This document shows positions 5,732 to 40,045 of a stretch of DNA of 64,000 nucleotides, piece after piece. Positions within the stretch are counted from its first letter, which is position 1, and every line of letters starts with the position of its first letter. The DNA comes from a virus. The notes below the pieces were generated by a model that saw only the letters and a program-made list of their open reading frames with translations, did not search any database and was not told where the DNA came from. A program made the position numbers and the translations under genes. Where the stretch lies: the IMG/VR virus record IMGVR_UViG_3300027710_000023. One strand, 5' to 3'.

Positions 5732-5943
5732 TCTACGATATGACAAACCCAGAAGAACCATTAGCGTTAGAAGGGTGGCATGTAAATACATTACAGCCTA
5801 TTGATAGTGCTGAAGAGTTTTTGATTACAGTTAACTCACCGAGTCATGGATTTTTTGGTGTTCCTAACGAAAGTGTGTATCACTACAAATTTAGTTCAAA
5901 AGAACAAGCACAAATGTTTTTAAATACAGAAGAGGTGGTTTAA
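5707..5943 (+). CDS. hypothetical acidic protein in the lysis cassette
   Basis: 78-aa ORF with AGGTGG RBS, overlapping its neighbours. Confidence 0.3.
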   Translation: MDISEIGLIYDMTNPEEPLALEGWHVNTLQPIDSAEEFLITVNSPSHGFFGVPNESVYHYKFSSKEQAQMFLNTEEVV

Positions 5944-6182
5944 TGGATATGTTAATGATGGCTTTGCAGAATAAAGGTATTATGCTTTTATCTGATCTGT
6001 TTTCAGCAGCAATGGGTTTATTAATGCTGTTATGTTGTATGTTAGTTGGTGCAAAATTATTAGGAATTGATATTTATGCTGCAATCGATAAAGTTGAAAA
6101 TCATCCTGTTGCATATGCAATTCTTGTTACTGGGCATTTCCTTGGTGCTGCCTACGTACTCGGTTGCACATTCACTGTATGA
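5943..6182 (+). CDS. putative class II holin/antiholin (two TM helices)
   Basis: 79 aa with two hydrophobic helices. GAGGTGG RBS. Its stop abuts the endolysin start. Confidence 0.4.
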   Translation: MDMLMMALQNKGIMLLSDLFSAAMGLLMLLCCMLVGAKLLGIDIYAAIDKVENHPVAYAILVTGHFLGAAYVLGCTFTV

Positions 6183-6186
6183 TAAG

Positions 6187-6663
6187 ATGATAGCCGCTTC
6201 TGCGGCTACTTATATGCCTGAAGTTGATTGGTTATTATGGAAAGCGCAAGTACATACAGAAAGTGCATTTAACCCAAATGCAAAATCACCTGTAGGAGCG
6301 CAAGGGTTATCTCAAGTAATGCCGGGTACATTTATGCAAATTAGTAAAGAATCCGGTATTAATAATAACCCTTATGACCCACAGACTAATTTAATGGCAG
6401 GTGCGTACTATATGGCTAAAATGCGTCGTATATTCAAATCACCAAGACCTGATATTGAAAGACATAAGTTAGCTGTAGCAAGTTATAACGCAGGAGCAGG
6501 ACACATCATTAAAGCACAAGCTTTAGTTGGTAATCCGCCTGAATGGAAACCAGTAGCAGATGTATTACCTAAAATAACTGGTAAACATGCAAAGGAAACA
6601 CAGAACTATGTTGAAAGAATATATCGAACCTATCAAGTTTATTCTATTGGTTCTACTTATTAG
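6187..6663 (+). CDS. endolysin, SLT-domain lytic transglycosylase
   Basis: HTESAFNP...GAQGLSQVMPGTF...AYYM...SYNAG motifs of soluble lytic transglycosylase. An alternative upstream start at 6115 would add a signal/SAR-like hydrophobic N-terminus. Confidence 0.7.
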   Translation: MIAASAATYMPEVDWLLWKAQVHTESAFNPNAKSPVGAQGLSQVMPGTFMQISKESGINNNPYDPQTNLMAGAYYMAKMRRIFKSPRPDIERHKLAVASYNAGAGHIIKAQALVGNPPEWKPVADVLPKITGKHAKETQNYVERIYRTYQVYSIGSTY

Positions 6664-7117
6664 TGGTTCAGGTTATTTAGGTTATGACTACGCTAATAAT
6701 AAGTGGGAAAAGAAAGAAAGTGAAACTATCGCTACTCAAGCTAAAATGATTAGTGATTTACAAGAAAAGTATCGATTAATTGAGAGTAAGACACAAAATG
6801 AATTTACAAAGATTGACAACAGCGATCAACACAAGATTTTGGCTTTACAAAGTGCCATTGATACTAACGAGTCTGTTATTGATAAGTTGCGCGCAGAAAT
6901 TACCAAATATAAAGGAATGTCCAAAATATCCACGAATACCGGAGTTAACAGAGAATTCGCGGCAACAGCCACTACCGCTGTACTGTATGCCGAATTGTTT
7001 GGACGCGCTAACGAAAGAGCAAGAGACTTGGCTATTGTTGCTACAGACACCAGAAACCGAGGATTAAGCTGCGAAGCTAAATACGATGCTATTTATCAGC
7101 AACAGTTTACCTTTTAA
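6608..7117 (+). CDS. i-spanin (Rz-like)
   Basis: N-terminal TM helix (FILLVLLISG) followed by coiled-coil and charged periplasmic sequence. Directly downstream of the endolysin. Confidence 0.55.
   Translation: MLKEYIEPIKFILLVLLISGSGYLGYDYANNKWEKKESETIATQAKMISDLQEKYRLIESKTQNEFTKIDNSDQHKILALQSAIDTNESVIDKLRAEITKYKGMSKISTNTGVNREFAATATTAVLYAELFGRANERARDLAIVATDTRNRGLSCEAKYDAIYQQQFTF
6798..7067 (+). CDS. o-spanin (Rz1-like lipoprotein) embedded in the +1 frame of the i-spanin
   Basis: Signal peptide with lipobox LISC. Short proline-rich mature part with three further Cys. Lies entirely inside 6608..7117. Confidence 0.55.
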   Translation: MNLQRLTTAINTRFWLYKVPLILTSLLLISCAQKLPNIKECPKYPRIPELTENSRQQPLPLYCMPNCLDALTKEQETWLLLLQTPETED

Positions 7118-7142
7118 ATATCATCATGTTAGATTGAAAAGG

Positions 7143-7172
7143 CTTAGTCATACTAAGCTTTTTTCATTTTAA
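7143..7172 (+). terminator. rho-independent terminator after the spanin genes
   Basis: Stem gcttagt / actaagc with loop cat, followed by ttttttcatttt. Confidence 0.6.
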
Positions 7173-7184
7173 TAAGGATGGGTT

Positions 7185-7517
7185 ATGAAACAAAGTTCGT
7201 ATTCACCGTGCAGATCTGAAAGACTTGGGCCACGTAAATACCGGTTACTGGAAGATTGGATTACGCCTTATGGGGTGATCCCCAAAGGGTTTGTGTGTGA
7301 TGGGGTAACTACTTCAGGATTGCGCTTCCTAGCCTCTCCGGGAGGCTCTCTGTTTGAAGCCGCTGTCGTACACGACTGGTTGTATAAAAACGCTGTACGT
7401 ACTAAGAGCTTTGCGGATAAAGCATTCTATCAAACAGCTCTGGCCTATGGGGTTCATGCTATCCGAGCGGAGATCTGTTATCAGGTTGTTCGGTTGTTTG
7501 GACGGGGCAACTACTGA
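7185..7517 (+). CDS. DUF1353-family protein
   Basis: FVCDGVTTSG...HDWLY motif pattern typical of DUF1353. TAAGGA RBS. The coding DNA is noticeably GC-richer than its flanks. Confidence 0.5.
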   Translation: MKQSSYSPCRSERLGPRKYRLLEDWITPYGVIPKGFVCDGVTTSGLRFLASPGGSLFEAAVVHDWLYKNAVRTKSFADKAFYQTALAYGVHAIRAEICYQVVRLFGRGNY

Positions 7518-7528
7518 GCCAAAATAAG

Positions 7529-7552
7529 TAGCCTTCGGGCTACTTTTTCTTA
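7529..7552 (+). terminator. rho-independent terminator
   Basis: agtagcc ttcg ggctact followed by ttttt. Confidence 0.6.
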
Positions 7553-7619
7553 TCGTGCGATCTGCCTTGTGTTAAAGTTACATAGACTGAAAATCCCATA
7601 AAATACATAAGGACAGGTC

Positions 7620-7841
7620 ATGCAAGTAGATATGAATACAATCTTATTATTTCTGCTGGGTGCATTACAAGCTTGGTTTTGGCAAGATAAAGCTCGTGAC
7701 GCAGCAGAAAGAAAGGAAATGAAAGATTCTATTAAAGTAATGGAACAAATCTTATATAAGATGCAATCGGAATTAGCTGTATCACGATTTGCTTTGTTTA
7801 ACAAAGAAAACCCAACAGGTAATACCAAAAATGAACAGTAA
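7620..7841 (+). CDS. small membrane protein
   Basis: 73 aa with an N-terminal TM helix and a charged helical tail. Its end overlaps the next start by 11 nt. Confidence 0.3.
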   Translation: MQVDMNTILLFLLGALQAWFWQDKARDAAERKEMKDSIKVMEQILYKMQSELAVSRFALFNKENPTGNTKNEQ

Positions 7842-8247
7842 ACCGTATAACGTTTTAATTATTGATGATGATGAGTTTGTAGCAAGATACCTTAAAGGTA
7901 TTTTTGAAGATGAGGGGGATGTAGCACATATTTGTACAAATCCTGATTTAGCCTTGGCATTAGCTAAGCAATACATGCCACAGTTGATAATTATTGATGT
8001 ACATATGACACCAACATCAGGATTTGAAGTAGCACTTCAGATCAGGGCTGATAAAGCTCTTCAGGATGTACCACTAGTATTTATTTCTGGTTCAGATGAT
8101 AAAGATACTGGTTTATTGGCATTTACTGTAGGTGCTACAGCATTTCTTAAGAAACCTATTAATGCAAGACAGTTAATTGAAGAAACAGGTATCATGAAAG
8201 ATATTTGTCAATTATCTCGAATTGCAAGAACAATTACAGGTAAATAA
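7831..8247 (+). CDS. stand-alone CheY-like response-regulator receiver (REC) domain protein
   Basis: VLIIDDDE acidic pocket. IIDVHMTP provides the likely phospho-acceptor Asp. FISGSDD and a conserved Lys in FLKKP. About 138 aa with no output domain. The track start at 7789 is TTG, and ATG at 7831 is preferred. Confidence 0.6.
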   Translation: MNSKPYNVLIIDDDEFVARYLKGIFEDEGDVAHICTNPDLALALAKQYMPQLIIIDVHMTPTSGFEVALQIRADKALQDVPLVFISGSDDKDTGLLAFTVGATAFLKKPINARQLIEETGIMKDICQLSRIARTITGK

Positions 8248-8248
8248 T

Positions 8249-8617
8249 ATGGCAGCAGTTCGCTATGACTTCTGTGTAAAGCAAGGTGCTAAGCATACCT
8301 TTCAATTAGATAAAAAAGATGGTTTTGGTAATCCAAAATCACTTGTCAATTATCTTGGTAAAATCAAGATTAAAAAACGACATTCCGATTTAACTATTAT
8401 TGGTGAAGCGCCTATTACATTTTTAGATGCACCAAATAGTAAAATGGAAATTGTTATTCCAGAAACAATGTTTAATGGCCTACAAATTGTAAATCCTAAT
8501 TCTAGTATTAAAGATACCGCTGTATACGATTTATATTTGTATAAACTTGATGGTACAACAGAAGTGGATATTGATCCTTTACTTGAGGGTGAAATTACTA
8601 TTTCAGCTAAGGTGTAA
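8249..8617 (+). CDS. hypothetical beta-rich protein
   Basis: ATG 2 nt after the upstream stop. 123 aa. Confidence 0.4.
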   Translation: MAAVRYDFCVKQGAKHTFQLDKKDGFGNPKSLVNYLGKIKIKKRHSDLTIIGEAPITFLDAPNSKMEIVIPETMFNGLQIVNPNSSIKDTAVYDLYLYKLDGTTEVDIDPLLEGEITISAKV

Positions 8618-8619
8618 CA

Positions 8620-11460
8620 ATGGAACAGCAGATTATTACAGAAAATACCGTTGAACTGGAAGTTCAAGCAGTTGATCAACCATTAGTCAGTATAACTGAG
8701 TCTATTACAAGTGAAGCAATTCATTTAGATTCAACTGTAGATGTTAAGGTTGTTTCAGAAGAATCTGCTGTTCTTTTAGTTTTAACAGAAGGTGGATCGT
8801 TATATAAGTATGCTGTAGCCAATGGTTATAGTGGTACTGAATTAGAGTGGATGACAGAACTACTTGATAGCAAAGCTTCAGTAGAGTTTGTTGTAACAAC
8901 GATTGCAAATGAACAAGTTGCTTATGCAGCTGCATTACTTGCTTTAAAAACAGAAGTTGGTGATACATACGCAAGTAATATTCATTTATCTGAAGTTTTG
9001 GCTCAAAGGGATTTAGCTAGAGCAATCGATTATCAAAACCTAGAAGCCAAGATAAATACAGATGTGCAAGCAAGTTACACATCTTTAATTGATGTATTAG
9101 CTACTAACAATCTTGCGTACACACAAGCTATAAACACATTAACAGCTGATCTTGGTTTATCTGAATCAAGAATAGATAATGTTGAGATTGCTATTGTAAC
9201 TGAAGGTCAAGCACGAGCTGCGGCTATCAGTAACTTAAGCAGTACACTAAATAATAGAATCACTGCTGAAATAGGTACTGTACAAGAGACAATAGTAACA
9301 AATGAACAAGCTACAGCTACACGGTTTGTAAATTTGTCTACTTCATTCAATAACAGATTTGATGCTGAATTAATTGTTATTAATACAGCAATAAGTACAG
9401 AAACTAATGCAAGAGCTTCTCAAATAGAAACATTACGGGTAGATTTTACATCTGGATTGGAAGCAGTACTTACAGAAGTTAATGAAGTTAGGATTGACAT
9501 TAGTGGTAATACTTCAGCTATATCTAGTTTAAGTGGTATGGTAAATAACCCAACAACAGGGTTAGTAGCATCATTTAATAGAGCTAATCAAGCATATACA
9601 CTTGCTGATAATACAGCAGGTAGTTTGTCTGTTATAGAAGGTAAAGTAAATAATCCTACTACTGGTTTAGCTGCAACATATGCATTTGTACAACAGGTAG
9701 AAATTAATGCTAGTACTAATACAGCTACTGCAATTAATAGTTTACGTAATGAAATTACTGCTCCAAATGCAGCATGGACAGCAAATAATACATTTATTCA
9801 ATCTATTGATTCAAAGGCAGGAAATGCGTTAACTAATGCTGCTAATGCACAAAGTAGAGCAGATACGGCATTTACTAATGCAGGTAATGCACAGACAGCA
9901 GCTAATAATGCTAATGCGGAATTATTGGCTATAGCTTCTGATGCTGTATTAAGTAAAGGTGAAAAACCAGCTGTTATTTTAAATTTAACTAACATATTAA
10001 ATGAACAAGCAGGTATTACAGCAGAAGGTGTACGATATGGTATATCGACTCAACGTACTAATTACACTAATGCTATTAATACACTTAATACGTATCTTAA
10101 TGGGTTGTCTCCTTCGTATAGTGATACTACACAAAATACACCCATAGTTGCTGCAACGTTCAGACAAAGATTTTCTGATGTGTATTCAACAAGACAAATT
10201 TTGTTAGATGCTATTGCAGCAGCAGCTAAAGTTTTAGCAGATAACGCTAAAACAGCAGCGGATAATGCACAAGGTACAGCTAATAACGCTGTTACGTTAG
10301 TAACTGATTTAAGTAATAATTTAGAGAATACAGTAAGTGGATATATTGCAGGCAATTCTTTAATTTTAGAAATACAAGATGATTTAGAAGGAAACATACT
10401 TGCAACTAGTACATTAAGTTCTACTGTTACATCTTTAGATGGTTGGAAAACTAATACGGCTTCTGTGCAGTTACAGACGCACACAAATCAATTAGGTACT
10501 CTTGAATCAAGAGCTTTTATTGGTGTTAGTGCTACCGCAGGCGGTAAGGCTGTTGTTGCTGGTTTAACAGTTAATTCAATTAATTACTCATTAAGTTTTC
10601 AAGGTGATATATTTGAGTTAGTTAATACTAGTGGAGTACAACAACTTTATTATGATACCGCACAAGCACAATGGAATTTTGCAGGTAGTCTTGTAGCAGC
10701 ATCATTTAAAACAGCTACTAGTGGTTATCGAGTAGAAATGGATGGTACATCTAACTTTCCTATTTGGTATGGTCAAGGTACTAAAAATAGCAGTAATGGT
10801 TTGTTTTATACTGATAAAAGCGGTAACGTAGTGATGCAAAACGCCACTATGTATAATGCATCTATACAAGGTAAATTAGTAACAGATAGTGGTACTGGTA
10901 TTCGTACAGAAATTGTAGATGATGGTACTTATTTAATTTGGATCGGTAGTGGTGCTAAAACAGACGCAAATGCTATTTTCTGGATTAAAAGAAATCAAAC
11001 TGGTTTTATCAGTGGTGAGTTTTTCCAAGGTGAAATTATAGAAACTAAGTATGCTACATATAGCAGTACTGCAAATGAGGCTGCTCTAGCAACTATTTAT
11101 AATCATAGTTCTGCTGGTAAAACAATGGAACTTACGGGCAATGGTAACGCACGTATTCAATCAGGGCCGGGTACAGGCGATTTAAGTGCAATTATAATAG
11201 AAGCTACTTGTACTCTGTATAGTGATGGTAATGTAATTGCCAGTAATACTGTACAAGTAAGAGGAATATATAACATAGATTTAAATAGAACAAACTGGTT
11301 TTTGTCTTATCCTCTTACTGGTATAAGAACAGGCCAAGGTGTAGGTATACATACGGCGCAATATCAAGTTACATTTGCTCCTATTAATGGTAGTATCAGT
11401 GGTATGGTTTACTTAATTAAAAACTGTTCAGTTAAAACTTTTGAAAATAAACTGGAATAA
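8620..11460 (+). CDS. large virion structural protein (tail fibre/sheath-like, 946 aa)
   Basis: Long repetitive helical N-terminal region with Asn/Thr/Ser-rich repeats and a beta-rich C-terminus. Sits between the lysis genes and the portal. Confidence 0.5.
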   Translation: MEQQIITENTVELEVQAVDQPLVSITESITSEAIHLDSTVDVKVVSEESAVLLVLTEGGSLYKYAVANGYSGTELEWMTELLDSKASVEFVVTTIANEQVAYAAALLALKTEVGDTYASNIHLSEVLAQRDLARAIDYQNLEAKINTDVQASYTSLIDVLATNNLAYTQAINTLTADLGLSESRIDNVEIAIVTEGQARAAAISNLSSTLNNRITAEIGTVQETIVTNEQATATRFVNLSTSFNNRFDAELIVINTAISTETNARASQIETLRVDFTSGLEAVLTEVNEVRIDISGNTSAISSLSGMVNNPTTGLVASFNRANQAYTLADNTAGSLSVIEGKVNNPTTGLAATYAFVQQVEINASTNTATAINSLRNEITAPNAAWTANNTFIQSIDSKAGNALTNAANAQSRADTAFTNAGNAQTAANNANAELLAIASDAVLSKGEKPAVILNLTNILNEQAGITAEGVRYGISTQRTNYTNAINTLNTYLNGLSPSYSDTTQNTPIVAATFRQRFSDVYSTRQILLDAIAAAAKVLADNAKTAADNAQGTANNAVTLVTDLSNNLENTVSGYIAGNSLILEIQDDLEGNILATSTLSSTVTSLDGWKTNTASVQLQTHTNQLGTLESRAFIGVSATAGGKAVVAGLTVNSINYSLSFQGDIFELVNTSGVQQLYYDTAQAQWNFAGSLVAASFKTATSGYRVEMDGTSNFPIWYGQGTKNSSNGLFYTDKSGNVVMQNATMYNASIQGKLVTDSGTGIRTEIVDDGTYLIWIGSGAKTDANAIFWIKRNQTGFISGEFFQGEIIETKYATYSSTANEAALATIYNHSSAGKTMELTGNGNARIQSGPGTGDLSAIIIEATCTLYSDGNVIASNTVQVRGIYNIDLNRTNWFLSYPLTGIRTGQGVGIHTAQYQVTFAPINGSISGMVYLIKNCSVKTFENKLE

Positions 11461-11466
11461 AATAAA

Positions 11467-13644
11467 ATGACAGATAATGTATTAGCAATTAAAGACGATG
11501 AGTTTGAGAAATTAGGTGTACCTGAAGATAAACCTAAGTCACATAAATTTACTGACTGGAAAAAAGAACCTAGTGTTGAAGACTTACGGCGTGATATTAC
11601 TGATTCAGCAGTAGAACATAAAAACCATGTAGCTGATGTAACTAATTGGCTGGATGCTTTATTTATTCGTGGTAAACACCAACCAGCTAAAAGTAAAACA
11701 CATAGTAGTGTACAACCTAAAATTATTCGTAGACAGGCTGAATGGCGTTACGCTTCATTAGTAGAACCATTCTTAAGTACAGATGATTTATTTAATATTG
11801 ATCCTGTTGCTCATGATGACACGAAAGCAGCAGAACAGAATCAATTATTATTAAACAATCAAATTAACACAAGAATGAACAAAACTAAGTTCATTGGTGA
11901 TTATATTCGTACAGCTGTAAACGAAGGTACTGTTGTTTGTAAAGTATCTTGGGTTTATGAAGAACAAGAAATAGAAATTGATGTACCTAACTATGTTGTG
12001 CAGATGGATGAGTCTGAAAGCACAGCACAGATTATCCAATCACTTATTAATGAATATAAGATGGATAGTGAAGTATTTAATGCTAATACGTCACCTGAAT
12101 GGATTGAAGCTGTAAAATTAAGTATGGCTACCGGCACTGTACATGCTCCTATTGAAGATGGTACTAAAAAAGCTAAACAGATGGTTAGTAAACGTAATCA
12201 TCCTTGGGTTGAGGTATTAGGGTATGAAGAGGTTATTGTTGATCCAACATGCAAAGGTGATGTCGATAAAGCTAACTTTGTTATCCACGTATTTGATACA
12301 TCAATGGGTGAATTAAAGAAAGCAGGTATTTATCACAATTTAGATCTTATTGACGTGAGTGCATCTGAATCTGTTGGTTCAAGTGACTTTGAAAACACTC
12401 GTAATACCACATTCCAGTTTTCTGATAAGACACGTAAGAAATTACGCGCACATGAGTACTGGGGTTACTACGATGTAGAAGGTGATGGTGTTTTGGTGCC
12501 TATCGTAGCTACTTTTGTTGGTTCAGTGATGGTACGGTTAGAAAAGAACCCATACCCAGATCAAAAGCTTCCTTTTATATTGGTTCAGTATTTACCAGTA
12601 GTAGGCGGTGTATATGGTGAAGCTGATGCAACATTAATGGAAGAGAACCAACGTATTATTGGTGCTGTTACTCGTGGTGCTATTGATTTGCTTGCGAGAT
12701 CAGCAAATGGACAAATTGGTTATCGTAAAGATGCTTTAGATTATTTAAATAGACGTAAGTTGGTTAATGGTGAAGATTATGAATTTAATCCTAACGTTAA
12801 CCCAGAACAAGCATTTCACATGCACAAGTTCCCAGAGATTCCTAATTCAGCATTAACTTTATTGGGTATGCAGAATCAAGAAGTGGAATCTATGACTGGT
12901 GTGAAATCATTCAATACAGGGATGACAGGAGCGTCACTGGGAAGCACTGCGATTGGTGTACGCTCTGCTATGGATGCTACGGCCAAACGTGATATGGACA
13001 TTCTGAGGCGTCTTGCTAAAGGTGTTGAAGATATTGGCCGGAAGATGATCAGCATGAATGCTGTGTTTTTGGATGAAGTAGAAGTCATTCGGATCACTAA
13101 TAAATCATTTGTGCCTATTCGTCGTGATGATTTGTTAGGAAATTTCGATTTAAGGTTGACTATTAGTACTGCTGAGGCTGATAATCAAAAAGCCGAGGAA
13201 CTGGCTTTTATGCTTCAGACTCTAGGTAATTCTGTAGATTTCAATATCAGTAAAATGCTACTGGCTGATATTGCCAAATTACGTAAAATGCCATCACTGG
13301 CTAAACGTATCGAAGAATATACCCCTGAGCCTGATCCATTAGCTGTTCAAGAGCAACAATTGAAAGTACAGTTGTTACAGGCACAAATTCAAGAATCTGA
13401 AGCTAAAGCTCAACATTGGTTAAGTGGTGTAGATAAAAACGTTACTGGTGCTCAACTGGACAACGCTAAAGCACGTAAGACTAATAGTGAAGCAGATAAA
13501 GCTGATTTGGACTTTATTCAAGAAGAAACTGGTACTAATCATGCCAGAGCACTTGAACAGACTAAAGCACAAGCTGAAGGTAATATTGAGTTAGAAGCTG
13601 TAAAAGCTTTATTAAATCCACCAAAAGATAAACAATCTGCGTAA
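11467..13644 (+). CDS. portal protein (N4 gp59-like)
   Basis: 725 aa with a coiled-coil C-terminus. Synteny: upstream of the scaffold and major capsid genes. Confidence 0.55.
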   Translation: MTDNVLAIKDDEFEKLGVPEDKPKSHKFTDWKKEPSVEDLRRDITDSAVEHKNHVADVTNWLDALFIRGKHQPAKSKTHSSVQPKIIRRQAEWRYASLVEPFLSTDDLFNIDPVAHDDTKAAEQNQLLLNNQINTRMNKTKFIGDYIRTAVNEGTVVCKVSWVYEEQEIEIDVPNYVVQMDESESTAQIIQSLINEYKMDSEVFNANTSPEWIEAVKLSMATGTVHAPIEDGTKKAKQMVSKRNHPWVEVLGYEEVIVDPTCKGDVDKANFVIHVFDTSMGELKKAGIYHNLDLIDVSASESVGSSDFENTRNTTFQFSDKTRKKLRAHEYWGYYDVEGDGVLVPIVATFVGSVMVRLEKNPYPDQKLPFILVQYLPVVGGVYGEADATLMEENQRIIGAVTRGAIDLLARSANGQIGYRKDALDYLNRRKLVNGEDYEFNPNVNPEQAFHMHKFPEIPNSALTLLGMQNQEVESMTGVKSFNTGMTGASLGSTAIGVRSAMDATAKRDMDILRRLAKGVEDIGRKMISMNAVFLDEVEVIRITNKSFVPIRRDDLLGNFDLRLTISTAEADNQKAEELAFMLQTLGNSVDFNISKMLLADIAKLRKMPSLAKRIEEYTPEPDPLAVQEQQLKVQLLQAQIQESEAKAQHWLSGVDKNVTGAQLDNAKARKTNSEADKADLDFIQEETGTNHARALEQTKAQAEGNIELEAVKALLNPPKDKQSA

Positions 13645-22436: not shown

Positions 22437-25400
22437 ATGGAAAACAACACTCCTCAAACCGGAGAAGAGTTGCGCCAACTGTTATTGACAGAAGGTAATA
22501 CTCCTACCCGTGAATCAAAAGTTGTTATTGGTTCTCAAACCAAACAACAACAACTTCAAAACACTACTAACAAACAAATCAGTGTTAGTAACGCCTCCAC
22601 TAATAAACAAATTAAATTAAAACAAGAAACTGATCCTACTGTACCAGTTAATACGGATTTAGTTTCTTATGTTGATTTTGCAAAGTCTTTTCCTGAAGGA
22701 ACATCATTAATAGATATTGATGTTGAATACTTACGTAATCAACGTGCTACTAATGAAAGAAAACAAGCTGAAATTAATCAAAACTATGAACGTAAACGTG
22801 ATCGTAGTGTTAGTGAGATTGCTTCAGATACTGGACTAAGTTTAGCTAAGAATGCTTCTTTAATTGGTGAAGCGGCTTTAGGCTTTGCTGATTTAGCTGG
22901 TTCTGGTGCTACAGATAACTTTGGTAATAAATTAAACCGAGCTATGGGTGCTGTGCTTGGTAAAGACACTGCTATTCCTAAAGCAGAAGATTTAGACAAA
23001 CAAATGTCTACCAAAGTACAAGCTCAACAAAAAAATATTCAAGATCGTGTTGCTGCTGTTAAGAGAGCAAATGAGACTGCTACAGCTGCTTTAGGTGATA
23101 AAGCTACTTGGTGGGATACAGCTAGTTCTGTTGGTTCAGAATTGAGTGAGAACTTAGTAGCATTAGTTGATAACCCATCTGCTTTAGCTGATGTTGCTCT
23201 TTCATCCGCTTTAGCTTTTACAGTACCTGCTGCTGTGTCAAAAGGTTTAACAAAAGCTGCAATTAAGAATGCTAAGCCTGAAGATATTGCTGAACTGATT
23301 GCTTCAGGCAAATTAGATAAGTTAGGTGAAGCCGGTGCAGTGATTGGTACTGCTGGACTGGAAGGTTTCTCACAAGCTTATTCTGAGAAAGAAAAAGTAC
23401 TGGAAACTGATCCAAGTGCATTACGTGAAACTTCTCCTAAGTTCAGAGAGTTAGAAGATAAGTATGGTACAGATAAAGCAAAACAAATGATTGCTGATTC
23501 TGTATTTCAATCTAACTTAGGATTAACTGCTGTATTAGCTGGTGTAGCAAGTAAAGTTACTGGTGCTGCTAAACTAGAGAAAGATTTATTTGTTGGTTCA
23601 GATACTTTAACTGCAATTGGCAAAGAAGCATTAGAAGAATCATTACAGTCAGCATCTAGTAATACAGTAGCTAACTTAACTGAAAAGACTTATGTAGATA
23701 AGAACCAGACATTAACAGAGAACTTAGGTTCAGCTGTTGCTACTGGATTAGCTGGTGCTGTAGTAAGTACCGCTGCTCTAAGTGGTACTGCTAATGCTGG
23801 TTCTGTATTAGCTGATAAAGTTGATAAGGGTTTAGCCAAAGTACAAGACCAAGCTACTAAGTTAGCTAATGCTCAACAAATTAATACTGAAGTAATGGAA
23901 GCAGCTACAACAGGTAACTTTGATAAATTAACTTCTAATACTAATTTTAGTATGGAAGAAAAAATCAATATGTTACTTAGTGATGATGTTATAGGTAAAG
24001 TACCAGTAGAACAGCAAGCTAAGATTGCTGAATTTGCTGGAAATTACTATGCTTCATTAGAAGCAGAAGATAAAGATAAATTATCTACTGAACAACAAGA
24101 GTTATCTCAGACAACTGAGTTAGTTAAAAATAAAATAGTTAAAGATCAGATTGATCCTATTATTGGTGATTTAGAAAATATTGATGATGAGAAAGAAGGA
24201 ACTATTGTTCGTGCTTTAGGCTCTTCACCTAATTCATTTACACAAGATCAATTAATTCAATTGGCTCCAGTAGTTTCTGAAAGTACTCGTAGTATTGTTG
24301 ATGCTCAAATAGAAGCTAATAAAGCTATTGAAGAAGTGGAAGCTATTCCACGTAAAGCAACACAACAAGTTAATCAGGATGTAATTAAAGGTGGTAAAGG
24401 CTTTTTAGGTTTAAATGATTATCGTAGACGCTTTGAAGCAGCTATTGGCACAGGTAATGTAGAAGCTGCAACTAAAGCAGCAGATATGTTAGCTAACCTT
24501 GCTACATTGCAAGCTGGTAAAGCAGCTGACATGACAGCATTGATGAAACTTCATAATAGTGAAGGTAATTCACAAAGATACCAAGAAGCCACTAAGAACT
24601 ACCAAACTAAATACAATTTGAAACCAACCGATTCTATTCATCGTGGTTCAGATAAATCAGGTATGGTCAGCCTCGTTGTAAGCGAAGCTAAGGCATTAAA
24701 CAAAGCTCATAAGGTGATGGCAGCGGTATTGGGCCACCAGTCTGGTAAGCCAGTACAGGCGCTTAAAGCACCTAAAGCTACTGTGATCCCTGAAGCTGTA
24801 AAAGAGCCTGTAGCGGTTGCTAAGCCACAGCCGGGCATTCCTATGGGTGAACCAAAAGAAGCTTCTGTAGCTACTCCGGTGCCTGCTCCTGTTGAGGAAG
24901 CTAAGCCAGTTGCCAGCAGCGAAGCTGCGACAGCAACGGAGGCGAAAGCTGACGAAACAACAGAACCAGTAAAGAAAGAATTATCTGAGGCTGAAGAGTA
25001 CGCAGATAGTTTTAGTAATGAAACTAAACCAGAAAAACCAACTACACCGCCTATTCATATTAGTATGAAAGAACGTGAAGATAGACAAAGAGAAGTCAAT
25101 AAAAAGAAAAAACGTTTACAGAAGAAGTTAGAACAGAAAGAAGAAGCACTTAAGAAAGCAGAAGAACGTAAAAATGAAATACGTGATCTGGTTAACAAAG
25201 ATGTAGTACAACCAGTTAATGAAGCTATTAAAGCTACTGGTAATTATGGTAATAAAACAAAATTACGTGATTCATTAGTTAAATTTGGTAATGATGTATT
25301 TACTGCATTAAAAACCAAAGGTATTGCTGAAGCGCGTAAACGTGTAGGTAATTATGCTCGTGGTGCCAAGGATGCATTAAATCGTACTGTTGATATGATA

Positions 25401-28400
25401 GAAACAGATTCTGATTATGTAGCTGGAGCTAATGCAGTTAAAAAAGTATTTGCTTTCAAAGCTAACAAATCAATAATCACTAATAAGATTTATGATAATG
25501 GTATTGCTCGTTTCTTTAATACAGTAGATAAAAATACTTTGTTTAATACTACAGGTAATTTAATTGAAGCTATTCAAGAACGTTCAGATGAGTTTGGTGT
25601 ACAAAGTAACTCAAGCCAAGAAGTATTAGATAATTTTGTAGATTTCCATAAAAAATTTAAAGCAAGTGTAGAGAAGTTATTTAAAGCTCCTTATACAGAA
25701 AAAGCAATGGTTGTTAATAATAACTTTATGGGTTATTTCACTAATGCTGAAGGTAAGTTAGATGATGCTATGGTTACTGCTATGGCAGGTGTAGCTTATA
25801 ACTATATGACCGAATCTGCTTCTGACTTAATAGATAACGACGATGATGCTATTCGTAATATCTTAAACATGGAAGATGAAGAAGAAGTATCACCACAAAT
25901 ACGTAATGCTATGCGTTATGTAGGTATTACTTTAAATGTAGTAGCTGAATCAATGGGTGATCAGTTAGTTAGTTCTATTGGTTTAAAATATAAAACCAAT
26001 ATCTCTGAAGCAGAAGAAGCAACAATGAGTGCTTCATTAGGTACGTTTATTGTATCTATGCTTGAAGATGCTGGCTTAATGAAATTAACAAGCTATGGTC
26101 GTGATGCTTATTTAGAAATGGGTTTTGATGAAGCTACTATAGATAAATTCTTACCTGAAAAGTTAAGTGGTTATTTACAAGTACATTATATCCGCCCAGT
26201 AACACAAATGTGGACAGCTACTGATGAAGCTACAGGTAAGTCATTTGAGTATGAAGATTTGATTGAATCTGTTGTTAAGTCAAAAGATTTGTTACGTGCT
26301 GAGAAAGATGATCCTGATAATATGATTGAAGGTTTTAAACCAGTTATTAATAACATCTTTGACATTGAGCCATTAGATAAAGAACCTTTACTTGTTCAAC
26401 CTAAAGAACAAGGTAAGAAAGTTAAACGTAGTCGTCAATCTCAATCAGTAAAACAGAACCAAGCTATTAATAAGATGAGTCAAGAACCTTGGCAATTAGC
26501 TGATACTTTTGAATCATATAACAAGTTATCTGTTGAAGCTAAACAAGCTATTGCAGGCTTTGCTACTGAAGAAGAGATTGCTCATGCTCATGTGAGTAAA
26601 CGTGAAACTATGGCAGCAAATAACAAGAGTATCACTCGTGTTATTAAAAAGTTTGATGACTTTGTTAAGAATGCTGATGGTAAAGATTTCTACTTACCTG
26701 TAGAGGTATGGAAGAACTTACGTATGGGTTATAAGAGCAGTACTATTAATCCACAGACTAATAAAATGATTCGTCGTTTAATTGGTTTGAAGAATGGTAA
26801 TAAGACTGTTGATTTAACTAATGATGCTCATATTAAGACTTTCCGTATGGCATTAATGGAAGCATTCGATATTAAACTGAAATGGGAAAACATTCAGAAT
26901 GATGATGCTTTAAATGCTAAGTTAACTATCCCAGAAGTTAAAGCAGCTGTTGATATGCTTGTTGCTGGTAATATGAGTGAACAGGTATTAGTTAATGCTG
27001 TGAAGAAGCTTGGTACTAATTATCATGCTTATCATGGTTTGATTGCTTATGCTAAATCAGTAAACAACAAAGTGTTTGAAACAGATCTGTTATTTGAATC
27101 AGATGGTGTCGCTAACGGTGTAGCAATTAGTTTATGGCAGTTTGCTGGTGCAAGAACTAAAGAACAGTTTAAACAAGCAATGCAACGTACAGGTGTGTAT
27201 GAAAATAATGAATATGGCTCATATTTAGAATACCAAGCACAACAAGGTAACATGGATTCATACCAAGTACTTGCTAGTCGATGGGGTGCTGCCGTAAATG
27301 AGTTAAAAGGCTATATCAGTAAATCTGATATTGAGTACACTACTTTGTTTGCTAAGTTTAAAACTGAGAAAGGTACAGCTAAGAAATTAGGTTATTTAAT
27401 TAATTTCTTTGGTTCAAATGAGAAAGCTTTAGAAGGTGTAAATGCAATTACATCTTTAGTAGGTGATTTGACTAATACATTAGGTGAAGTTGAAAAGCTT
27501 GGTCGTGATATGGCTAAGTCTCCTACAATGACATCTATTTATAATGCCGGCTTAGATTCTATTTTAGATAAAGTATCTGATGGTATTATTGAAAGAATGT
27601 ACGATCAATTAGAAAATGATGTTAATAAAGGAACTAATAACAAAGAACGTATCGTTAAAGCTTTAAACGTATTGTTTAATGCTAACTTTGATATGGATAG
27701 TCCATTAGAATGGCAACTGTCAAATATTAAAGATAAATACACAATTACTACAATGGAAGGTAAGCAAATTAAAGTAACTGCTGAAGAAGGCTTAAAGCAT
27801 GTTATTGCTATGGTGTATGGCCCTACATTAGATAATGCTATGTATTCTGTGTATGGTAGATTGCTTGATAATCGTCAAACAGCAAACCAAGCTATTACTT
27901 ATGCTTTCCGTGTGTTTAAAGAAATTTATGACATTGAAGAGAAAAATAAGTTAGCTGAGCTGGGTGTTAGTAGTTTATCTAAAGATCAACGTGATGAATT
28001 AATTAATCAACTCAAACCATACTGGCCTGTACTTGCTACTCCTACTTCTAAAGATAACAGTGAAGGTATTCTGTTATTTAAAGAGAAGAAGCGCAAAGGT
28101 TATAAAACTGATGCAAAAGCTAAAGCATTTGCTGTAGTACAAGAGTACGCAGGTAAAATTGGTAGTAACGGTAATAAGCAACGTACTGTCAACGCTAGTG
28201 CTATTGCTTTAGAAGAACCGGGTGCTAGTGGTATTCCTACTGCTGTTCAGATGTTGGATGCTCATACTATGTTTGGTGCATTGTCTGAAGTAGTTGGCTT
28301 GAACGTACATGATGCTATTGGCTCAACTATTGCAGATGCTGATAATAATACCACAGCAATAAACAAAGCTTATAACCAAATGGTTATGGGTAATTATAAC

Positions 28401-31400
28401 ATTGAGACTTCTGTAGAGTTAATGTTAGATAATGCAATTAAAGCAGCACAAGCATATGGTATTGAAGATAAATTAAACAGAATGACAGATAGATATGATC
28501 AAACACTTAATCCAACTGAAGTAAAAGATCAGATTGAATTAAATATTGAAATGTCTAATAAGTTACGTTCATCTTTAAAAGTTAGTACCATATCTCAATA
28601 TGATAAACCTAATGGTGCTTATTTAACTGGTAATAGTGTTATTGATACTGATGAAGTAGTTGTTGAAGAAGTTGTACAAGATGTGTTTAAGGAAATGAAA
28701 GATTTGTTAGGTTCTCAGGATGTAACTAAAGGAACTGAAGACTTTTCACAAGCACAGACTTATAACGCAACTGTTGATAACTCAATGGATATTTTTAATC
28801 AACTGGAAACATTAGGTAGTGTAGAAGACAATACAGAACATAAAGAACACTTACGTTCTGTTTTATCAGAAATGATTAATAAAGTATTACAACCTACGTT
28901 AGTTGTGTTAGGTACTGTAGATGAAGCTACTCGTGGTAGATTCATGCAGGATGTTAATGGTAAACGCCAAATTGAAATTGCTACAAGTGTTGGTGATTTT
29001 GAGTACGGTTTATCTGCACAAGAAGTTTATGTACATGAAATGATCCATAACATTATTGGACATGCTTTATCATCAGGTGCTGTAGAAGTAAAACGTATTA
29101 CTGCTATGTTCAACGCAGTAAAAGATTTAGTGGATAGTGGTGACATTACTTATAAAGATTTTTTATCTTTGGATCAAGCTGGTAATACTATCAGTAATCC
29201 AACACAAGAACAGATTGATGATGCTACAGATAGATTAAATTATATCTTTAATAACACAACGGTACGTGTACGTAAGATTACTGATCCCGCTACAGGAATT
29301 GTTACTACTACTAAGACAAATAGTGCGTTAGAAGAGTTTGTTGCCTTTGGTACTACTAATGCTGCCTTTATGAAAGCATTAAATAAACCAAATGTACTTA
29401 TGGCTCTTAAAACTAAATTAAGACCAGAACACAGTAAAACTAAATCAAATACATGGTTAATCCAGAAATTTGACAGCATAGTTAATGCATTACTGGACAT
29501 GATTCAGTTTGCTATGGATAAGCTGACTGACCGGGTGTTGAACATTGCCGGGAAGAAAGTAGATGCTCAGTTGGCAACGCTTGTATCGGCTCTGGCTGGC
29601 GTTCAGGTGAAACATCAAAGCAAAGTGATGCAAGGTATAGATGCGGTGTTAGCGTTCAGCACAGCCTCAACCGCTAAGCTTAAAGCATGGGTAGTAGCAC
29701 CGATTGTTGCAGCTGCTAATAGCTCACGATTCAAAAACAGCAAGAATACTGTTGTTCGTGTGACTACTAAGGCAATTGCTGTTGCTGGTAACAGTAAAGC
29801 AGGTACTTGGGCTAAAGCGTTACGTCAAACACGTAGTCGTTTAAATATGACCCAAGATAACTTTGCTTTGTCGTTAGCTCAGGAAATTGCAGGTGTTACA
29901 TCTAAAAATAAACACTGGCATAAGTTATTACGTTTATCTAATAAACATATTGACCAATTACGTAAGCATGTAGCAACTACTGTTAAGAATACTCTTAATG
30001 AGCAGTACAGCTACACTTTAAATAAAGAAGAGAAAGCTGCTATTACTAAAGCAGTATTAAAAACTGATTTAACTGCGTTACTGGAATATGGTTACACTTA
30101 TGATGAAATCTATGATTTATTAAAAGATGAATCCAAGTTAACTAAAGTAATTGAAGATAAACAAGCTTTAATTAAGAAAACGTATACTCAAGGTGTTGGT
30201 CGTTGGGTATTAGACCAAAGTACTGGTTTATCTAATAAGATGATCACTGGAACTGAGATTCGTGGTAATCAAGGATTGAATGCTTATCAAATTGCTAACG
30301 GCTTTGGTAATCCAATTATCAAGAAACGTATGCAAGATAATAAGGTAGACAACAACCAATTAGAAAAAGATGTTGATGAATTAGTTACTTTAATGGCTCT
30401 GAACTTAGTTGATTCTAAAGTTAAAGCTAACGTGGTATCTATTTTTGATAAAGAAGTAGCTTCTGGTAAAACACTAAACAACAATGGTTTGAGTTTTACT
30501 ATGGAACATCACCGTAACTACAAAGTAGATTCACGTAATGAAAACTTTGATGGTAATCCAGCATTGATGCGTAAAGGGTATGTCAAAGAAATTACTGATC
30601 CTAATATTGCAGTACAAGTAGTTGACGTAACTGATTTTGTTAAAATTGCAGAGTTAGTTAAAGCAGGATACAAACCAACTCAACAATATATCTATGGTGA
30701 TGTGCGTGATCCTAATGGATCAAAAATGGAGATATACCGTAACACTGCTGCTAAGTTAGCAACTAACTCTGCTGGTATTGTATCCCTGACTTCTAAACAA
30801 AGCATGGGTACAGATATACTGGATGGTTTTGTTAACAAAGATACTATGAGTACTAATATTGGTTTGGATGCTTATTTAAATATCCAAGCAATTAATAAAG
30901 ATATGGAAATTGCAAGTAACGTAGGTATGACTGCATCAGGTAATACTAAGACTGTATTGTTAACACCTGTATTTAACTTAGATGGTGATGTAGTAAATTA
31001 CCGGTATGAAATGTCAGATGCTAATAAAGAAAAGTTGTTAAAAAGACACAATTCTTTTGATGACATTTTATCTGGTATGACTGCACAAATTAAAGATAAA
31101 GCTAATACTAAAACAATTAACAGTGTTGTAGTTGAGACTTTAAAGCAAGAGTTTGATGCAGAGTTTGTTAAGTCACCTAAAGAGTTTGTGTTAGTTGGTA
31201 TTAACAGTACTGATCCAGCAATGAAAGAGTTATGGTTTACTCTTCCAGAAGAAATGCGTATTGAAGCTACTAAGTTATTTGGTACTAAGGGATTATATGT
31301 TAAGAAGAAAGACTTACGTTTAATCTTTGGTTTCCGTAAGTTTACTGTGGGTGAGTGGGCTGAGAAGCTACAGGAACAAAGTAAAGTACAGAACAAGATG

Positions 31401-39772: not shown

Positions 39773-40045
39773 TTAATCAGAGGGTTGAGCTACAGCTCTT
39801 ACTAATGCCATTGTACCTGTCTGAATATCTGTTTTAGCAATAGCTGCCCAACGAAGAGGTGTTGTACGTAAAAGATGTTCAGTTGTTTCTGGTGTGGCGT
39901 TAACACCTTGGTTTTGTAAATACAAAATTACTTCTTCATGTAAAGCTAACATTTCACGTTGTTTTTCTTTGATTCGGTTCATTAAATCAATTTCAACTTG
40001 AGTCAGTTCACGATAACCTTTAATATAACGATGTTGGTTTTCCAT
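39773..40045 (-). CDS. hypothetical protein
   Basis: 90-aa ORF. Confidence 0.35.
   Translation of the reverse strand: MENQHRYIKGYRELTQVEIDLMNRIKEKQREMLALHEEVILYLQNQGVNATPETTEHLLRTTPLRWAAIAKTDIQTGTMALVRAVAQPSD

Follow-up and report, generated by a model that had tools for sequence, protein, structure and literature searches.

What is a stand-alone receiver (REC) domain doing among the late genes of an N4-like phage, close to those for lysis? The question is raised by IMG/VR virus record IMGVR_UViG_3300027710_000023, a stretch of viral DNA of 64,000 nucleotides analyzed here at its full length (the window), and specifically by the gene at positions 7831–8247. A reading of the sequence made without database searches (the original prediction) had taken positions 7185–8617 to be an accessory islet between the lysis cassette and the structural genes, and had proposed that a CheY-like receiver encoded there could intercept a host two-component or chemotaxis phosphorelay. 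We find that the receiver gene and the gene immediately upstream of it, which codes for a small predicted membrane protein, form a translationally coupled pair that is a conserved unit of two clades of N4-like phages. In both clades the pair is located in or beside the lysis cassette, and four cultured Alteromonas phages have analogous pairs set among genes for endolysins, spanins and/or holins. Both the coupling and the lysis-gene neighborhood had been missed by the original prediction.

A stand-alone receiver protein

The gene at 7831–8247 (plus strand, as are all features described here except where noted) codes for a 138 amino acid protein that matches the Pfam Response_reg family (PF00072) with an E-value of 2e-20 and a score of 73.5 bits (cutoff 30.2), the match extending from residue 8 to residue 117 and covering profile positions 1–108 of 111. 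The full receiver signature noted earlier is borne out, with all of the signature residues aligned. Residues D12 and D13 fall on the acidic pair, and D56, the aspartate of the segment IIIDVHMTP, falls on the phospho-acceptor (D57 in CheY and D53 in PleD), where it had been expected to lie; S86, F105 and K108-P109 align with T87, Y106 and K109-P110 of CheY. These correspondences come from a HMMER alignment to PleD and a BLASTP alignment to E. coli CheY, the sequence of the latter having been entered by hand. The active-site residues are invariant in all 11 sequences of the clade to which the window belongs (clade 1), and are conserved in 14 of the 15 members of the wider family described below. 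There is no output domain, and α5 is followed only by a conserved helix of about 20 amino acids (..IMKDICQLSRIAR..). Likewise, the earlier impression that no kinase is encoded nearby extends to the whole window, as none of its 64 other open reading frames (ORFs) of at least 50 amino acids contains a HisKA, HATPase_c, Hpt, CheA/W or second REC domain. Any phosphorylation of the receiver must therefore come from the host or from small-molecule donors. These sequence comparisons establish the ORF as a true receiver domain whose phospho-acceptor site is intact, a canonical single-domain receiver that can probably be phosphorylated.

Structure prediction, which had been suggested as a check, agrees with this in part. 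The top PDB fold matches of two AlphaFold models, built from 11 sequences (predicted local distance difference test score, pLDDT, of 73) and 15 sequences (pLDDT 84.5), are all receivers, but only the first 77–89 aligned columns superpose well (1.0–3.5 Å). The C-terminal half is mis-modelled in the first model, and in the second, better one the α4–β5 portion is still uncertain; its low-confidence, non-canonical appearance is possibly due to alignments of only 11–15 sequences. The receiver assignment therefore rests on the sequence and not on the models.

The description of the protein as CheY-like does not hold in the chemotaxis sense. Its identity to the hand-entered E. coli CheY sequence is 26%, which is no better than its identity to any receiver, and the sole CheY model among the 25 listed of 93 NCBIfam matches (CheY_Halo) scores 40 bits relative to a cutoff of 200. 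Models of PhoB, DivK, NtrX and PleD types outscore it, and none reaches its cutoff among the matches listed. The closest PDB relative is the first receiver domain of PleD (Rec1). As judged by these scores, the protein is not a CheY orthologue, and belongs to the receiver domain superfamily without falling into any named response-regulator family. It shares with bacterial single-domain regulators (of the CheY, DivK, Spo0F and CpdR types) the domain itself, the five active-site residues, the aromatic switch and the lack of an output domain, so that it would act by contacts with other proteins or as a shuttle or sink for phosphate. Unlike these regulators, of none of which it is an orthologue (the NCBIfam equivalog cutoffs are missed widely among the matches listed), it is encoded by a phage, has no cognate kinase and is obligatorily paired with a small membrane protein.

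Other receiver-like entries known from phages do not correspond to it. The divergent cREC domains of jumbo phages (PMC7824862) are similarly phage-encoded receiver folds without histidine kinases, but they are linked to NAD+/ADP-ribose-processing enzymes, whereas the window protein scores as a classical receiver and no NAD+/ADP-ribose-processing domain is present among the Pfam hits of the window's other ORFs. In N4 gp63 (PMC12642591), a region beside a membrane helix is called the "Receiver domain", but the name does not denote a REC fold. A PADLOC search yields nothing meaningful, its one match (16.6 bits) being between the receiver and the REC part of PD-T4-6.

A coupled membrane partner

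The gene immediately upstream (7620–7841) codes for a 73 amino acid protein, referred to here as the partner, with an N-terminal hydrophobic helix ending in AWFWQDK followed by a charged helical tail. The end of this gene overlaps the start of the receiver gene by 11 nucleotides. The small membrane protein noted in the original prediction is thus identified with this ORF, and the single helix has a 19-residue Wimley-White sum of −8.4 kcal/mol, similar to that of the holin candidate of the same phage (soluble controls give +0.9 and +1.6), although it is borderline on the Kyte-Doolittle scale. Homologues with 46–92% identity are located 5′ of every receiver in the family, and the ratio of nonsynonymous to synonymous substitution rates (dN/dS) is about 0.12. 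The motif [WY][FV][WF].DK, which describes the end of the helix, was scanned for in 1.37 million six-frame residues from all fetched loci, and each of its 20 occurrences is in an ORF directly 5′ of a stand-alone receiver.

The partner is otherwise not readily found. A tblastn search with the 73 amino acid protein against phages gave no match at E-values up to 1, a partner profile found nothing in bacterial genomes, and the one match of that profile among metagenome contigs (L025) is a false positive without a related ORF.

Conservation and a second clade

A word-indexed protein search with the receiver identified ten clusters, all metagenomic, with 67–96% identity. Eleven loci (L001–L011; clusters P0003, P0006 and P0010) share the same gene order, with SLT endolysin, Rz-like spanin, DUF1353 gene, an ORF of about 72 amino acids, receiver, phrog_1084 gene, a large variable gene and portal. 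The GC content of the receiver gene (0.34) is close to that of the genome (0.36), its third-position GC (GC3; 0.18–0.23) is that of the phage background, and its dN/dS of 0.07–0.09 is the lowest of four genes. The receiver has thus long resided in the lineage of this phage, where purifying selection on it is strong.

HMMER, run exhaustively over 1.84 billion representatives, added one further single-domain relative (P0035; 47% identity, C-terminal helix included), below which the matches are generic receivers, mostly from proteins of multi-REC phosphorelays. Together with its relatives P0160–P0162, P0035 defines a second N4-like clade (clade 2) whose receivers are 43–47% identical to that of the window; one member is on a 69.6 kb contig with an SU10/N4-type portal. 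In the clade 2 locus L021 the order is M15 endolysin, a 71 amino acid partner, receiver, a 126 amino acid i-spanin, an overlapping o-spanin (lipobox LSGC), a two-helix holin-like protein and phrog_1084. The 71 amino acid protein is 46–52% identical to the partner in the window, and its stop codon is likewise overlapped by the receiver start. Because the partner and the receiver are both retained in clade 2 while the DUF1353 gene is not, the conserved unit is the coupled pair.

The single departure in the active site is in P0162 (L023, 3516–3941), where the acidic pair is lost (DDD to HNN) along with the Ser/Thr and Lys-Pro positions, while D56, the C-terminal helix, the membrane partner and a downstream spanin are retained. 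By sequence, this protein is a pseudo-receiver.

A receiver profile scanned against 185,579 bacterial species representatives found no motif-sharing receiver above 36% identity, and since bacterial genomes offer only generic receivers, no donor can be named, nor any host regulator that the protein would mimic. The closest cellular receivers are 35–40% identical and are from Hpt-REC-REC and hybrid-kinase phosphorelay proteins. Four further IMG/VR loci considered as relatives (L017–L020) were set aside, as the regulators they encode are of ordinary OmpR or NtrC type or have no partner. A separate high-GC viral contig (IMGVR_UViG_3300005436_000125; L016, 5186–6378) has a tail-spike-like gene followed by a gene for a protein whose hydrophobic helix ends in AWVFFDK and which has a long coiled coil; the stop of this gene overlaps the start of one for a 127 amino acid stand-alone receiver, 39% identical to that of the window, and the contig ends soon after.

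Analogous gene pairs in cultured phages

The gp11 protein of phage A5 and the gp30 protein of the myovirus V22 have been reported as "CheY-like" class II auxiliary metabolic genes (AMGs) in a shared host-recognition module (PMC10579305, PMC7289586). The original prediction had known of no such gene in N4-like phages, but A5 is an Alteromonas schitovirus and its gp11 is already annotated as "CheY-like protein" (PMC10579305), so that a stand-alone receiver in an N4-like phage is on record. The comparison among Schitoviridae that had been called for has a mixed outcome, with a receiver in A5 and none in Pollock, a typical N4-like phage that has a lysis cassette in the same genomic slot. In the literature library searched, only the A5 paper (PMC10579305) ties receiver domains to lysis cassettes or to Schitoviridae, and there appears to be no earlier description either of the membrane partner or of the recurrent placement of the receiver in lysis cassettes.

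There are several points of similarity between these phages and the window. First, the receivers of A5 and V22 (147–149 amino acids) also stand alone, retain the acceptor site intact and have a C-terminal helix. Second, each is preceded by a one-helix membrane protein, the helix ending in WFWYDKK there and in AWFWQDK in the window; in the window too, a stand-alone receiver directly follows a coupled one-helix protein with a WFWxDK-type motif. Third, in A5 as in the window the receiver gene lies between the tail fiber genes and the portal region of a schitovirus. Fourth, the order of the A5 and V22 cassettes is the same as that in the window's sister clade. In cassettes of the A5 type, gp10 (one helix, with SWFWYDKK at its end) is followed by the gp11 receiver, an i-spanin, an o-spanin, a two-helix holin-like protein and the gp14 endolysin, the o-spanin lipobox of this type having been observed in the A5-like locus L087. 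In those of the V22 type, the gp28 amidase is followed by gp29, the gp30 receiver, gp31 (a match to the phrog Rz-like spanin at 7e-6), an o-spanin (observed in V22-like locus L086) and gp32. The succession of partner, receiver, i-spanin, o-spanin and holin-like protein in clade 2 locus L021 recurs in L086 and in A5 and L087, and the best matches of the clade 2 proteins in the A5- and V22-type cassettes are their positional counterparts (E = 8e-10 for the i-spanin, 1e-6 for the o-spanin and 1e-4 to 1e-5 for the partner, in a 16-sequence database; several of the E-values given here are from such very small custom databases).

There are also clear differences. The receivers of A5 and V22 are only 23–32% identical to that of the window, no better than generic receivers, and the window receiver scores 42 bits with A5 and 66 with V22 as compared to 70–94 with the best cellular receivers. 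The spanins of the window's clade are of another type (DUF2514) and lie upstream of the receiver, and a DUF1353 gene is inserted; the arrangement in which the receiver is followed by overlapped i- and o-spanins and a two-helix holin-like protein was found in clade 2 (L021) and not in the window.

The A5 and V22 papers treat the receiver gene as a signaling AMG and, unlike the analysis presented here, leave the surrounding spanins and holin unannotated. The V22 gp28–gp32 segment (L012, 5202–7281) and the A5 gp10–gp14 segment (L083, 4631–6745) each hold genes for an Rz-like i-spanin and a two-helix holin-like protein as well as for an amidase or endolysin, and they also contain an overlapping o-spanin gene with a lipobox, which neither record annotates. 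This gene content suggests that part of the published A5/V22 "host recognition module" is an unannotated lysis cassette.

The closest cultured-phage matches are in the Alteromonas siphoviruses R9Y1–3 (REC genes _12) and the autographivirus H4/4 (gp44), with 33% identity over 91% of the length. In these phages the receiver start also overlaps the stop of a gene for a one-helix, coiled-coil protein, but this partner lacks the WFWxDK motif of the window and is of a separate sequence type. Here too the receiver gene adjoins a lysis gene, a lysozyme gene in R9Y2 (one-helix coiled-coil protein, receiver, lysozyme) and a class II holin gene in H4/4 (holin, one-helix protein, receiver). The H4/4 gp44 protein is annotated as a "DNA-binding response regulator", yet at 153 amino acids it has no room for a DNA-binding domain.

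This survey of other phages was opportunistic and not systematic. Among the receiver matches inspected there was no schitovirus, A5 surfacing only in a search with V22 gp30, and the host genera that dominate 488 portal-positive phage records hardly overlap those of 62 records with receiver matches. Two further candidates were rejected. In the unannotated record "Pseudomonas phage Y11" (L014, OQ572412.1; UNVERIFIED) the ORFs at the match are P. aeruginosa-type REC-GGDEF and chemoreceptor-like proteins, and in OQ658365.1 (L084) genes for a transaldolase and a tRNA-dihydrouridine synthase are beside it. Both matches look like host DNA, either as contamination or as prophage flanks, and are no evidence for phage receivers.

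A possible role in lysis timing

Because the receiver is coupled to a membrane partner, is placed with lysis genes in several phage families, and has an intact acceptor site in a phage without a kinase, a role in lysis or in late envelope events suggests itself. Our tentative preference, plausible though short of probable, is that the receiver and its partner form a membrane-tethered phospho-switch that tunes the timing of lysis or of a late envelope event. Late in infection the small partner would sit anchored in the inner membrane and bind the receiver, its charged helix facing the cytoplasm. The phosphoryl group on D56 would come from a host histidine kinase, from an Hpt protein or from acetyl phosphate, and the phosphorylation state would alter the action of the partner on the holin, endolysin and spanin machinery, in the manner of a cytoplasmic antiholin or lysis regulator, such that lysis or the late envelope event would be tuned to the physiological state of the host. 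We know of no antiholin that uses a phospho-accepting domain. There is a parallel in the T4 RI and RIII antiholins and the N4 lysis regulator gp62 (PMC12642591), which are small accessory proteins encoded with lysis genes and modulating lysis timing, and in the delay of lysis by N4-type phages upon a cytoplasmic signal, the input for lysis inhibition in N4 itself being not yet identified (PMC12642591); the likeness to the T4 and N4 proteins is one of proposed working and not of sequence.

Several observations weigh against a lysis role or against parts of it. The pair in the window lies past the spanins and two terminators and is co-oriented with the structural genes. The junction of lysis and tail fiber genes is well known as a hot spot where unrelated accessory genes insert, and the adjacency could therefore be permissive and not functional. 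The receivers of the window, A5, V22 and R9Y2 are 23–33% identical and no closer to each other than to generic cellular receivers. As to the partner, its membrane topology was assigned from charge distribution only, the helix-end motif was defined after the sequences had been seen, and a hidden Markov model of the partner family does not significantly match V22 gp29 (E = 0.31 among 1,447 ORFs; hhalign probability 10%), which leaves the motif and the position-specific best matches as the support for a relationship. Both structural models have low confidence in the α4–β5 part of the receiver. Finally, since P0162 lacks the acidic pair, the Ser/Thr and the lysine, phosphorylation cannot be required in at least that lineage.

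The main alternative, possible though doubtful, is that the pair is a phosphate sink or decoy. The receiver, tethered by its partner, would draw phosphoryl groups off a host histidine kinase or Hpt protein without acting directly on lysis proteins. Its targets could be envelope-stress, pilus/motility or receptor-regulating pathways, and the host response would be blunted late in infection; this is a generalized form of the interception that the original prediction had in mind. Single-domain receivers are established as phosphate sinks in bacteria, and the intact acceptor site in a phage without a kinase, the phosphorelay origin of the closest cellular receivers (35–40% identity; Hpt-REC-REC and hybrid-kinase proteins) and a tether that would put the receiver beside membrane kinases are all as a sink would have them. 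The phage protein PIT4, as reported, shows that phages do target two-component systems (PMC10714779). However, the gene is in the late structural/lysis block, which is late for rewiring host transcription, there is no close cellular homologue (neither the genome scan of 185,579 species nor the representative library gave anything above 36–40% identity), and the pseudo-receiver P0162, which cannot accept phosphate, is kept with its partner nonetheless.

A more specific form of the lysis proposal seems rather unlikely to us as a whole: that the receiver and partner are an antiholin-like phospho-switch in which host-phosphorylated D56 would set the lysis clock, that this would be the first input of two-component type into lysis timing, and that podo-, myo- and siphoviruses would share it as part of a mobile lysis cassette.

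The persistence of P0162, with its C-terminal helix and neighbors intact, is what would be anticipated if the receiver fold were an adaptor or assembly factor independent of phosphorylation, serving as a binding module for the partner or for the phrog_1084 or fiber proteins, and perhaps itself a virion or assembly component. The gene spacing is compatible with this, the receiver stop being 1 nucleotide from the phrog_1084 gene and that gene 2 nucleotides from the gene for a 946 amino acid protein, as is the published placing of the A5 and V22 genes in a "host recognition module". We nonetheless consider it improbable, as the five phospho-site residues and the aromatic switch are invariant in 14 of 15 members and are kept in A5, V22, R9Y2, H4/4 and L016, a conservation not expected were catalysis irrelevant, and in clade 2 and in V22 and A5 the gene is flanked by endolysin and spanins and not by structural genes.

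That the protein is a true CheY mimic, binding the flagellar switch or taking phosphate from CheA so as to alter host motility, is very improbable, since in spite of its single domain, its CheY-like size and the JGI annotation of one relative as "CheY-like chemotaxis protein", it has the low identity to the hand-entered CheY sequence and the low CheY model score among the listed matches noted above, its best solved relatives are PleD, NtrX, PhoB-type and DivK-type receivers, there are no che genes among the window's 64 other ORFs, and the membrane-anchored partner has no counterpart in chemotaxis.

Other features of the locus and genome

The window is the genome of a divergent N4-like (Schitoviridae-type) phage with a GC content of 35.7%. 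It contains an ORF (22437–32357) of 3,306 amino acids, the size of a virion RNA polymerase, and a portal protein (11467–13644) that is at most 49% identical to the portals of cultured N4-like phages from many host genera. A megablast search with positions 6500–9500 gave no match among GenBank phages, and no tRNA genes were found in the window.

The genes preceding the pair are tail-spike-sized genes, two for small membrane proteins, and the lysis genes. The second of the small membrane proteins is a candidate holin (5943–6182; 79 amino acids), proposed from its two hydrophobic helices and its position directly 5′ of the endolysin gene, and without a family match. The endolysin (6181–6663) is a lytic transglycosylase with an SLT domain (Pfam 4.6e-23; phrog_669 endolysin, 5.6e-37), and the next gene (6587–7117) encodes an Rz-like i-spanin (Pfam DUF2514, 1.8e-13; phrog_312 Rz-like spanin, 6.4e-26). 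Embedded in the i-spanin gene is a candidate o-spanin gene (6780–7067) with a hydrophobic leader ending in LLISC, the lipobox having been judged by eye.

The two terminators of the original prediction are both present as hairpins followed by T-runs. The first (7136–7172; hairpin 7136–7164) follows the spanin gene and has a 13 bp stem, which is maintained by compensatory changes in L001, L005, L007 and L011, the L011 sequence being entirely different. The second (7526–7555; hairpin 7526–7545), GTAGCC-TTCG-GGCTAC, has been conserved in L001, L005 and L007; L011 lacks it. Between them is the DUF1353 gene (7185–7517; Pfam E = 9.6e-12; phrog_1158), which is indeed GC-richer than its surroundings (0.48, and 0.40–0.44 in its relatives, versus 0.36 for the genome), diverges faster (dN/dS about 0.1), is absent from clade 2, and has homologues in jumbo and other phages and not in N4-like ones. 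GC-rich and with a terminator on either side, it alone in the stretch resembles a moron, a description that it largely fits. The idea of an accessory islet thus holds for the DUF1353 gene and not for the receiver, which has neither the composition of a moron nor that of a recent islet (its GC and GC3 are native), is present in all relatives, is syntenic in the 11 loci under low dN/dS, and is retained with its partner in clade 2.

Between the second hairpin and the partner gene is a conserved element, CTTGTGTTAAAGTTA (7566–7604, with the motif at 7566–7580), identified by alignment across the clade. The motif is kept throughout the clade, partly even in L011, and the element overlaps a weak sigma-70-like site (7577–7604; 9 of 12 matches). 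From its conservation and position it may be a late promoter or regulatory element.

A fourth gene of the supposed islet, not mentioned in the original prediction, begins 1 nucleotide past the receiver stop (8249–8617) and encodes a 122 amino acid protein matching phrog_1084 (4.2e-8, and 2.1e-13 when the clade 2 homologue is compared with the same family). It is kept in both clades by synteny and is probably structural; a tblastn search with the 122 amino acid protein against phages gave no match. The 946 amino acid protein that follows (8620–11460), encoded 5′ of the portal gene and varying from 744 to 967 amino acids across relatives, has no family match except a weak Ala-zipper. It is probably a fiber or appendage, and would mark the end of the module.

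Two genes elsewhere in the window may be mentioned. An 89 amino acid ORF on the minus strand (39773–40045) matches the Acb2/Tad1 hairpin domain (Pfam PF24729; E = 2.2e-16), which makes its product a candidate cyclic-nucleotide sponge directed against CBASS or Thoeris. One ORF between 39773 and 57351 encodes a Band_7/SPFH (stomatin-like) protein (Pfam 1.9e-25). A stomatin-like "AMG" is also listed for phage V22, a carrier of the CheY-like gene; both functions are accessory and associated with membranes, and they may occur together by chance.

Implications

The timing of phage lysis is well understood in only a few model systems. If the receiver in the lysis cassette is regulatory, it would provide a ready-made means of reading the phosphorylation or energy state of the host at the decision to lyse; if it is a phosphate sink, it would be a compact viral tap on bacterial two-component signaling that needs no kinase of its own. 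As the cultured Alteromonas phages A5, V22, R9Y2 and H4/4 carry analogous modules, the idea is directly testable.

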